Positions 45,476-48,400 of a stretch of 64,000 nt of DNA are shown in pieces. How positions within the stretch are numbered: the first letter of the stretch is position 1; each line of letters starts with the position of its first letter. The position numbers are program-made. This DNA comes from Escherichia coli. GTDB lineage: Bacteria; Pseudomonadota; Gammaproteobacteria; Enterobacterales; Enterobacteriaceae. The stretch lies in assembly GCF_003018115.1 (NCBI RefSeq), contig NZ_CP027457.1. One strand, given 5' to 3'.

Positions 45476-48400
45476 TAACCGGATTGCACCACCAGACGAG
45501 CACGCCGCCAGTGCCGGTGGCCTTGCCGTTGGCATACTGGGGGCACTGAAAGCCGCAGGCGGACTGTGGTTTGGCTGGAGTGGTGAAACAGGGAATGAGG
45601 ATCAGCCGCTAAAAAAGGTGAAAAAAGGTAACATTACGTGGGCCTCTTTTAACCTCAGCGAACAGGACCTTGACGAATACTACAACCAATTCTCCAATGC
45701 CGTTCTCTGGCCCGCTTTTCATTATCGGCTCGATCTGGTGCAATTTCAGCGTCCTGCCTGGGACGGCTATCTACGCGTAAATGCGTTGCTGGCAGATAAA
45801 TTACTGCCGCTGTTGCAAGACGATGACATTATCTGGATCCACGATTATCACCTGTTGCCATTTGCGCATGAATTACGCAAACGGGGAGTGAATAATCGCA
45901 TTGGTTTCTTTCTGCATATTCCTTTCCCGACACCGGAAATCTTCAACGCGCTGCCGACATATGACACCTTGCTTGAACAGCTTTGTGATTATGATTTGCT
46001 GGGTTTCCAGACAGAAAACGATCGTCTGGCGTTCCTGGATTGCCTTTCTAACCTGACCCGCGTCACGACACGTAGCGCAAAAAGCCATACAGCCTGGGGC
46101 AAAGCGTTTCGAACAGAAGTTTACCCGATTGGCATTGAGCCAAAAGAAATAGCCAAACAGGCTGCCGGGCCACTGCCGCCAAAACTGGCGCAACTTAAAG
46201 CGGAACTGAAAAACGTACAAAATATCTTTTCTGTCGAACGGCTGGATTATTCCAAAGGTTTGCCAGAGCGTTTTCTCGCCTATGAAGCGTTGCTGGAAAA
46301 ATATCCGCAGCATCATGGTAAAATTCGTTATACCCAGATTGCACCAACGTCGCGTGGTGATGTGCAAGCCTATCAGGATATTCGTCATCAGCTCGAAAAT
46401 GAAGCTGGACGAATTAATGGTAAATACGGGCAATTAGGCTGGACGCCGCTTTATTATTTGAATCAGCATTTTGACCGTAAATTACTGATGAAAATATTCC
46501 GCTACTCTGACGTGGGCTTAGTGACGCCACTGCGTGACGGGATGAACCTGGTAGCAAAAGAGTATGTTGCTGCTCAGGACCCAGCCAACCCGGGCGTTCT
46601 TGTTCTTTCGCAATTTGCGGGAGCGGCAAACGAGTTAACGTCGGCGTTAATTGTTAACCCCTACGATCGTGACGAAGTTGCAGCTGCGCTGGATCGTGCA
46701 TTGACTATGTCGCTGGCGGAACGTATTTCCCGTCATGCAGAAATGCTGGACGTTATCGTGAAAAACGATATTAACCACTGGCAGGAGTGCTTCATTAGCG
46801 ACCTAAAGCAGATAGTTCCGCGAAGCGCGGAAAGCCAGCAGCGCGATAAAGTTGCTACCTTTCCAAAGCTTGCGTAGGAGCGGTTAATCTCCCGTAAGTG
46901 GAACTAACAGCACATCGACCTCACTTGAGGCAATAACTCTTTTCGCCGAGCAGGATGCTCGCGAAAAGAAACTGTGATTGTGATTACCGCAAATCACCAA
47001 ATCGAAATGATGTTTGTGACATACTTCCAGAATATGTTCGCTTAACTCACCGTAGGCAATAAACGTCTTGTCAACGGGATACCCCGCATCCTGAATTAAC
47101 TTATCAAGAAAGCTTTGCGTTTCTTCTTGCATCACGCTGCGTAAATCTTCAAGCATCGGCGCGGCTAATTGATTGTACATTTCCGGGTCGGAAGCGAGAG
47201 TAATTAAACTGATGTGTCCCTTTACTGGCCTGGCGATAGATACCGCTTTTGCCAGCAGTTGCTGACTTTCCGGTGTAACCGCAACAGCGACAAGAATATT
47301 GCTATAGCTCATAACCTGTTCCTTATTCTGTGAACTTCAGGTGACATTAAAGCTTTACTCCTAATGGAGAAACGACGCAATCCCAACTCGGTCAAACAGG
47401 TAAATATTAGTCTGATTATTAGTAAAGACAATTAATCAATCACTCCAGGTGATCATATAATTTCAAATGTAATTATAAGAAAATAGTGTACTGATTCTCC
47501 GCATTAAACAAGTGGTTAATATATGTAAAACATTTCATTAACATTAAGTTGATTGTTGCCTTTCTTTGTATTTAATTAGTTTGTTGTGCGGTAAGTGTCT
47601 GTTTAAAAATAGCTTATCTGGTATTGCATGAAAGTGATTATTTATAGCAGATGATTATTTACGGTGAGTTATTTTAACTGTGCGCAACATCCCATTTCGA
47701 TTATTCCTGTTTCATTTTTGCTTGCTAGCGTAGCGAAAAACTTTTTAACAGATTGAAATACACCCAAAACAAAAGTATGACTTATACATTTATGTTAAGT
47801 AATTGAGTGTTTTGTGTGATCTGCATCACACATTATTGAAAATCGCAGCCCCCCTCCGTTGTATGTGCGTGTAGTGACGAGTACAGTTGCGTCGATTTAG
47901 GAAAAATCTTAGATAAGTGTAAAGACCCATTTCTATTTGTAAGGACATATTAAACCAAAAAGGTGGTTCTGCTTATTGCAGCTTATCGCAACTATTCTAA
48001 TGCTAATTATTTTTTACCGGGGCTTCCCGGCGACATCACGGGGTGCGGTGAAACCGCATAAAAATAAAGTTGGTTATTCTGGGTGGGAATAATGCATACC
48101 TCCGAGTTGCTGAAACACATTTATGACATCAACTTGTCATATTTACTACTTGCACAGCGTTTGATTGTTCAGGACAAAGCGTCCGCTATGTTTCGTCTCG
48201 GCATAAATGAAGAAATGGCGACAACGTTAGCGGCACTGACTCTTCCGCAAATGGTTAAGCTGGCAGAAACCAATCAACTGGTTTGTCACTTCCGTTTTGA
48301 CAGCCACCAGACGATTACTCAGTTGACGCAAGATTCCCGCGTTGACGATCTCCAGCAAATTCATACCGGCATCATGCTCTCAACACGCTTGCTGAATGAT

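Follow-up and report, generated by a model that had tools for sequence, protein, structure and literature searches.

Evidence for a native, uninterrupted flhDC control region in a non-K-12 Escherichia coli

Insertion sequences (IS) that land at −96 to −476 upstream of flhD activate flhDC in Escherichia coli K-12 and raise motility (PMC5100188, PMC5493358, PMC4183435), and such insertions carry a cost in acid survival (PMC11237407). For the flhDC locus of another strain, this raises the question of whether the control region is native, IS-activated or scarred by a lost insertion, and of how much an empty site says about expression. We examined the question in a 64,000-nucleotide stretch of E. 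coli contig NZ_CP027457.1 (the window), for which an original prediction had described an intact control region of 780 bp. We conclude, with a probability of about 93%, that a non-K-12 E. coli here carries its class I flagellar promoter region in native, uninterrupted form, and none of the evidence speaks against this. As a genetic element it is already known: a textbook control region in its ordinary state.

The uspC–flhD spacer and its integrity

The region lies where the native E. coli flhDC control region is expected, between divergent uspC and flhD and upstream of flhDC-motAB-cheAW, and comprises the following features.

46884–47312, minus strand: uspC coding sequence, a 142-aa ORF divergent from flhDC and the left boundary of the spacer
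47313–48091, no strand assigned: uspC–flhD intergenic spacer, 779 bp, AT-rich and uninterrupted
47787–47798, no strand assigned: IS insertion hot spot, unoccupied here (flank alignments, junction counts and literature, PMC5100188)
48092–48442, plus strand: flhD, an intact ORF with its ATG at 48092
48445–49023, plus strand: flhC, an intact ORF

The gene order is otsA (plus), uspC (minus), the 779-bp spacer, flhD, flhC, motA and motB, within a syntenic block (otsBA-uspC / flhDC-motAB-cheAW) in which all genes are intact; indeed, each gene from araF to flhE (40937–63709) is an intact ORF. The FlhD and FlhC proteins are identical to those of MG1655, and the product of uspC, a name transferred from the annotation of identical or near-identical RefSeq genomes, differs from its MG1655 counterpart by one residue. 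The predicted interval coincides exactly with the intergenic spacer at 47313–48091, with the length corrected from 780 to 779 bp, and its description as AT-rich was borne out by a GC content of 34.8% against 50.1% for the whole window, with values down to 27% in some 200-bp windows. An Rfam scan (by E-value) of 46000–49500 returned no match, and the 40-aa ORFs of the spacer at 47309–47431 and 47826–47948 (minus strand) are without annotation in the RefSeq genomes compared. Downstream, coordinate transfer from the MG1655 annotation maps the sigma-28-dependent small RNA MotR (b4828) to 48987–49081 on the plus strand, within the flhC 3′ end and the spacer that separates flhC from motA.

We aligned the spacer with reference E. 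coli sequences, the check that the original prediction had named for its claim of an IS-free interval. In a megablast search with all 779 bp, 5,421 of 5,426 complete E. coli genomes matched, and in at least 40 wild isolates, drawn from diverse hosts, identity was 100% over the full length. Strain F9792 and the B2 type strain DSM 30083 both have spacers of 779 bp, which align with that of the window without gaps. MG1655 contains one extra block of 776 bp, made up of the 768-bp IS1H and an 8-bp duplication that corresponds to window positions 47787–47794, and is otherwise colinear. Four substitutions separate the two spacers, at 47429, 47447, 47676 and 47830 (−465, −447, −218 and −64); from 47787 to 48442 the alignment is gap-free and 47830 is the sole mismatch. 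A search for IS1 homology across the whole window found none. The claim held, with neither an IS remnant nor a deletion relative to wild-type E. coli, and with no IS at about −96 to −476 upstream of the flhD start, the range that defines the IS-activated allele, whether the element is IS1, IS5, IS3, IS30 or another.

Within the hot spot, CATTTATG (−107 to −100) is the target that IS1H duplicated in MG1655, and the adjoining TTAA (−99 to −96, 47795–47798) is where IS5 inserted in W3110, MC4100 and DH10B. Since IS loss at the flhDC site is known from mixed laboratory populations (PMC11237407, PMC5100188), an empty spacer might also be a scarred allele that remained after IS excision or another rearrangement. 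We consider such a history exceedingly improbable here. The sequence at 47787–47798 is continuous and free of target-site duplication, the spacer equals those of F9792, DSM 30083 and K-12 minus its IS in length without a gap, and many unrelated wild isolates share it at 100% identity. A scar was accordingly rejected, as 4-, 8- or 9-bp target duplications, IS terminal repeats and gaps are all absent.

IS interruption and strain background across E. coli

How informative is an empty site? A query with 47400–47893, the 494 bp upstream of the start, hit 5,590 places in 5,419 complete-genome records, so that in about 171 of the 5,419 records an insertion of more than about 750 bp divides the sequence into two pieces. 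At least 80% of these 494 bp were recovered in one piece in 5,282 of 5,419 genomes (about 97%). Queries specific for single junctions identified the MG1655 IS1 junction in 89 of 5,426 complete genomes and the W3110/MC4100/DH10B-type IS5 junction, which in W3110 sits at TTAA 47795–47798, in 58 of 5,426; all of the IS1- and IS5-junction matches listed are laboratory K-12 derivatives. These two laboratory insertions make up 147 of the approximately 171 interrupted genomes (about 86%), and the interrupted fraction outside K-12 is at most about 0.5%. IS occupancy of the uspC–flhD spacer is essentially a feature of K-12 laboratory lineages. The IS-free spacer is the species norm and thus an expected state that conveys little information; with about 97% of genomes in this default condition, a comparison with K-12 says little.

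One exception among natural strains is E. coli BS-01 (NZ_CP172816.1), a non-K-12 broiler isolate with the A allele at the CRP site (see below), which carries an IS1 at the hot spot (approximately 47792/47795; 3395–4169 of the BS-01 locus). Natural strains can therefore acquire activation of the K-12 type.

The window does not derive from K-12. Over 40000–64000, its best 24-kb matches are ETEC O169:H41-type genomes (F9792, F6326-C1 and 2014EL-1345-2), with a sole mismatch at 47780 (A here, G in F9792), which is at −114 and adjoins the IS hot spot; the A is common to MG1655 and DSM 30083, which makes G the derived state. Of the 75 mismatches to F9792 over 16380–64000, 74 fall within 16380–40000, which includes the flagellin gene region, and this cluster suggests a recombination boundary or an H-type different from that of the O169:H41 genomes. 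The segment 12243–16379 (fliE to yedK), 4.1 kb long, is not colinear with F9792, in which the interval spans 1.4 kb; the ORFs of the window segment resemble an SMR-type small membrane protein, a PEBP/YbhB-like protein, an AraC-type regulator and a 360-aa OmpC/PhoE-like porin.

Variation within the spacer, which has served as a source-tracking marker (PMC5007776), is uneven. The distal half is hypervariable, with 28 differences from DSM 30083 in about 250 bp (47390–47635), against 12 differences in 450 bp in the proximal part (47636–48091), and the FlhD proteins of the two strains are identical. For 47400–47893, 1,045 genomes fall within the 90–95% identity band.

Promoter, leader and the CRP site

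To place the promoter, we used the published coordinates of the IS5 target. TTAA at −99 to −96 (PMC5100188) corresponds to 47795–47798 in the window, which sets +1 at 47894 and gives a leader of 198 nt; in MG1655, the equivalent base is the annotated 3′ end of the antisense RNA AsflhD (b4839; PMC9600491). The features assigned relative to this start are as follows.

47812–47833, no strand assigned: cAMP-CRP site, with the 16-bp core TGTGAtctgcaTCACA at 47815–47830
47859–47864, plus strand: predicted sigma-70 −35 element, TTGTAT, at −35 to −30, from its spacing to the predicted start
47882–47887, plus strand: predicted −10 element, TACAGT, at −12 to −7, 17-bp spacer from the −35
47894–48091, plus strand: flhDC mRNA leader, 198 nt from the predicted start, 100% identical to K-12
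47894–48113, minus strand: antisense RNA AsflhD, by identity from MG1655 b4839 (coordinates and function, PMC9600491)
47898–47911, plus strand: RcsAB-box-like sequence TAGGAAAAATCTTA, at +5 to +18, identical in K-12 and conserved in Enterobacter
47900–47902, plus strand: GGA motif 1, at +7, at the position of a CsrA site
47943–47945, plus strand: GGA motif 2, at +50, at the position of a CsrA site

From −63 to the flhD ATG, the window is base-for-base identical to K-12, and three of the SNPs relative to K-12 lie farther upstream than the CRP site. By virtue of this identity, the core promoter, RcsAB box and CsrA sites mapped in K-12 would all be present, as would AsflhD and the leader with which sRNAs pair. 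We name the −35 and −10 hexamers, the RcsAB box and the CsrA sites from the K-12 literature, taking the +5 to +18 sequence to be the RcsAB box (Francez-Charlot 2003), the leader GGA motifs to be the exact CsrA sites (Yakhnin 2013) and the CRP site to be the one mapped in K-12 at −71.5 (Soutourina 1999). AsflhD starts within the codons of flhD and spans the entire leader without a mismatch to MG1655, position 47830 lying outside it. In a promoter and terminator scan, strict consensus did not call the flhDC −35/−10 pair, as expected for an activator-dependent promoter; the scan returned one minus-strand promoter-like match and no terminators, fewer than in shuffled sequence. The leader folds with a minimum free energy of −52.5 kcal/mol (z = −1.0), a structure that is not unusual, and Rfam holds no model for it. 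Regulators of the flhDC promoter are listed in PMC5493358 and PMC9600491; the leader is targeted by CsrA, which shields flhD mRNA at its 5′ end, by McaS, OxyS, ArcZ and OmrA/B, and by antisense AsflhD (PMC9600491). The proposal that the spacer is roomy enough for the known regulatory elements is supported, and we accept the putative sites for OmpR, LrhA, H-NS and other regulators through identity to K-12.

A more distant comparison came from a pattern scan of genome contigs, which returned two loci and was not exhaustive, having missed E. coli itself although DSM 30083 contains the 20-mer. One locus, the flhDC promoter of Enterobacter sp. CC120223-11, encodes an FlhD that is 90% identical and provides a single outgroup data point. 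It shares the perfect CRP core, the −35/−10 block, a start region that includes TAGGAAAAATCTTA and the 3′ portion of the leader, whereas neither the central leader nor the DNA upstream of the CRP site can be aligned. These conserved blocks amid diverged sequence form a phylogenetic footprint of the CRP core, the −35/−10 elements, the +5 to +18 box and the 3′ leader portion. The other locus, from Kosakonia, was discarded, as the DNA examined there contained no FlhD homologue.

The CRP core TGTGATCTGCATCACA lies at exactly 47815–47830, the position at which the original prediction had placed a perfect CRP site; "perfect" applies to the 16-bp core, as 15 of the 22 positions of the extended consensus are matched. 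Its centre, between 47822 and 47823, is at −71.5 from the predicted start, a class I position, and transcription of flhDC depends on CRP (PMC2859248). The 64 kb contain two matches to TGTGA-N6-TCACA, where shuffled sequence would be expected to give 0.09. The second perfect core, TGTGATTTGTATCACA at 39008–39023, is about 84 bp upstream of the azuC ORF, which has 28 codons (MKLRKILKSMFNNYCKTFKDVPPGNMFR, 39107–39193) and is followed directly after its stop codon by a stem and a T-run.

At position 47830 (−64), the window has A (TCACA) where K-12 has G (TCACG). With a 33-mer able to match one allele alone, 4,481 of 5,426 genomes scored as A and 415 as G, the G group being overwhelmingly MG1655, BW25113, W3110, J53, C600 and similar strains; A is also present in O157:H7, BL21(DE3), DSM 30083 and the Enterobacter outgroup. 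The perfect CRP core is the common species allele, and the published K-12 site is a minority variant. Because both the Enterobacter promoter and the B2 type strain carry A, the G looks derived, and the A-allele site is probably ancestral with K-12 as the variant.

Does the −64 base matter for expression? Under one reading, the intact region is not equivalent to that of IS-free K-12: A at 47830 would render the promoter more responsive to CRP and permit adequate flhDC expression without an IS, making "tightly repressed like non-motile K-12" the wrong expectation. Besides the base difference itself and its distribution, in which the G form is almost confined to K-12 derivatives and A is found in the sole outgroup recovered as well as in the B2 type strain, the clustering of IS interruption in K-12 (147 of approximately 171) is in keeping with this reading. 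In K-12, Fahrner and Berg (2015) also reportedly obtained higher flhDC expression from single-base changes in the region bound by cAMP-CRP. However, the outermost base of a half-site adds modestly to CRP affinity, and the excess of IS in K-12 may instead reflect laboratory selection on motility agar together with clonal over-representation of two laboratory lineages. Among ECOR strains, moreover, PflhD activity correlated weakly with motility (PMC5289928). On balance, we regard a more CRP-responsive promoter as a tentative proposal, more probably wrong than right. We are similarly doubtful of the associated claim that the derived TCACG of K-12 is also the weaker site, which would make K-12 an atypical model for native flhDC control. 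If the −64 base did measurably lower CRP activation, this would partly explain the poor motility and ready IS fixation of IS-free K-12, as well as the near-confinement of IS insertions to K-12 among complete genomes.

Proposed regulation and comparison with known systems

For the native, uninterrupted region that we favor, a working model can be drawn from the features above. A weak sigma-70 promoter (TTGTAT / TACAGT), which probably needs cAMP-CRP bound at the −71.5 site, would start flhDC transcription at about 47894. The long AT-rich upstream DNA and the early transcribed region would hold the sites that K-12 mapping has assigned to repressors and nucleoid proteins (H-NS, LrhA, OmpR, RcsAB and others), and the 198-nt leader would serve as a platform for CsrA, Hfq-dependent sRNAs and AsflhD. 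With no IS at the −96 to −107 hot spot or farther upstream, the upstream repression that IS1 or IS5 relieves in motile K-12 stocks should be operating, with expression set by environmental inputs. The "tightly regulated" flhDC expression that was originally proposed may apply, and the motility of the strain is expected to be under normal environmental control rather than constitutively raised by an IS. The allele counts also show that the K-12 CRP site, the one commonly cited, represents a minority allele and the symmetric core the species norm.

Three known arrangements of the same interval put the window in context. The uspC-IS30-flhDC configuration marks naturalized E. coli from wastewater (Zhi et al. 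2016, PMC5007776) and shows that IS occupancy of this intergenic region extends to environmental lineages; the spacer of the window, in contrast, is free of IS30 and of any other insertion. The IS-activated alleles of motile K-12 (MG1655 CGSC 7740, with IS1H at −107 to −100; W3110, MC4100, DH10B and RP437, with IS5 at TTAA −99 to −96) occupy the same locus, and their target sequences are also present in the window, which carries no insertion in them. IS-free K-12, such as BW25113 and MG1655 stocks without IS1, has the same flanking genes, 779-bp length, FlhD and FlhC, empty hot spot and sequence from −63 to the ATG as the window, which differs in its non-K-12 genome background and in its bases at four positions (−465, −447, −218 and −64); at −64 the window has the base of the TCACA consensus half-site.
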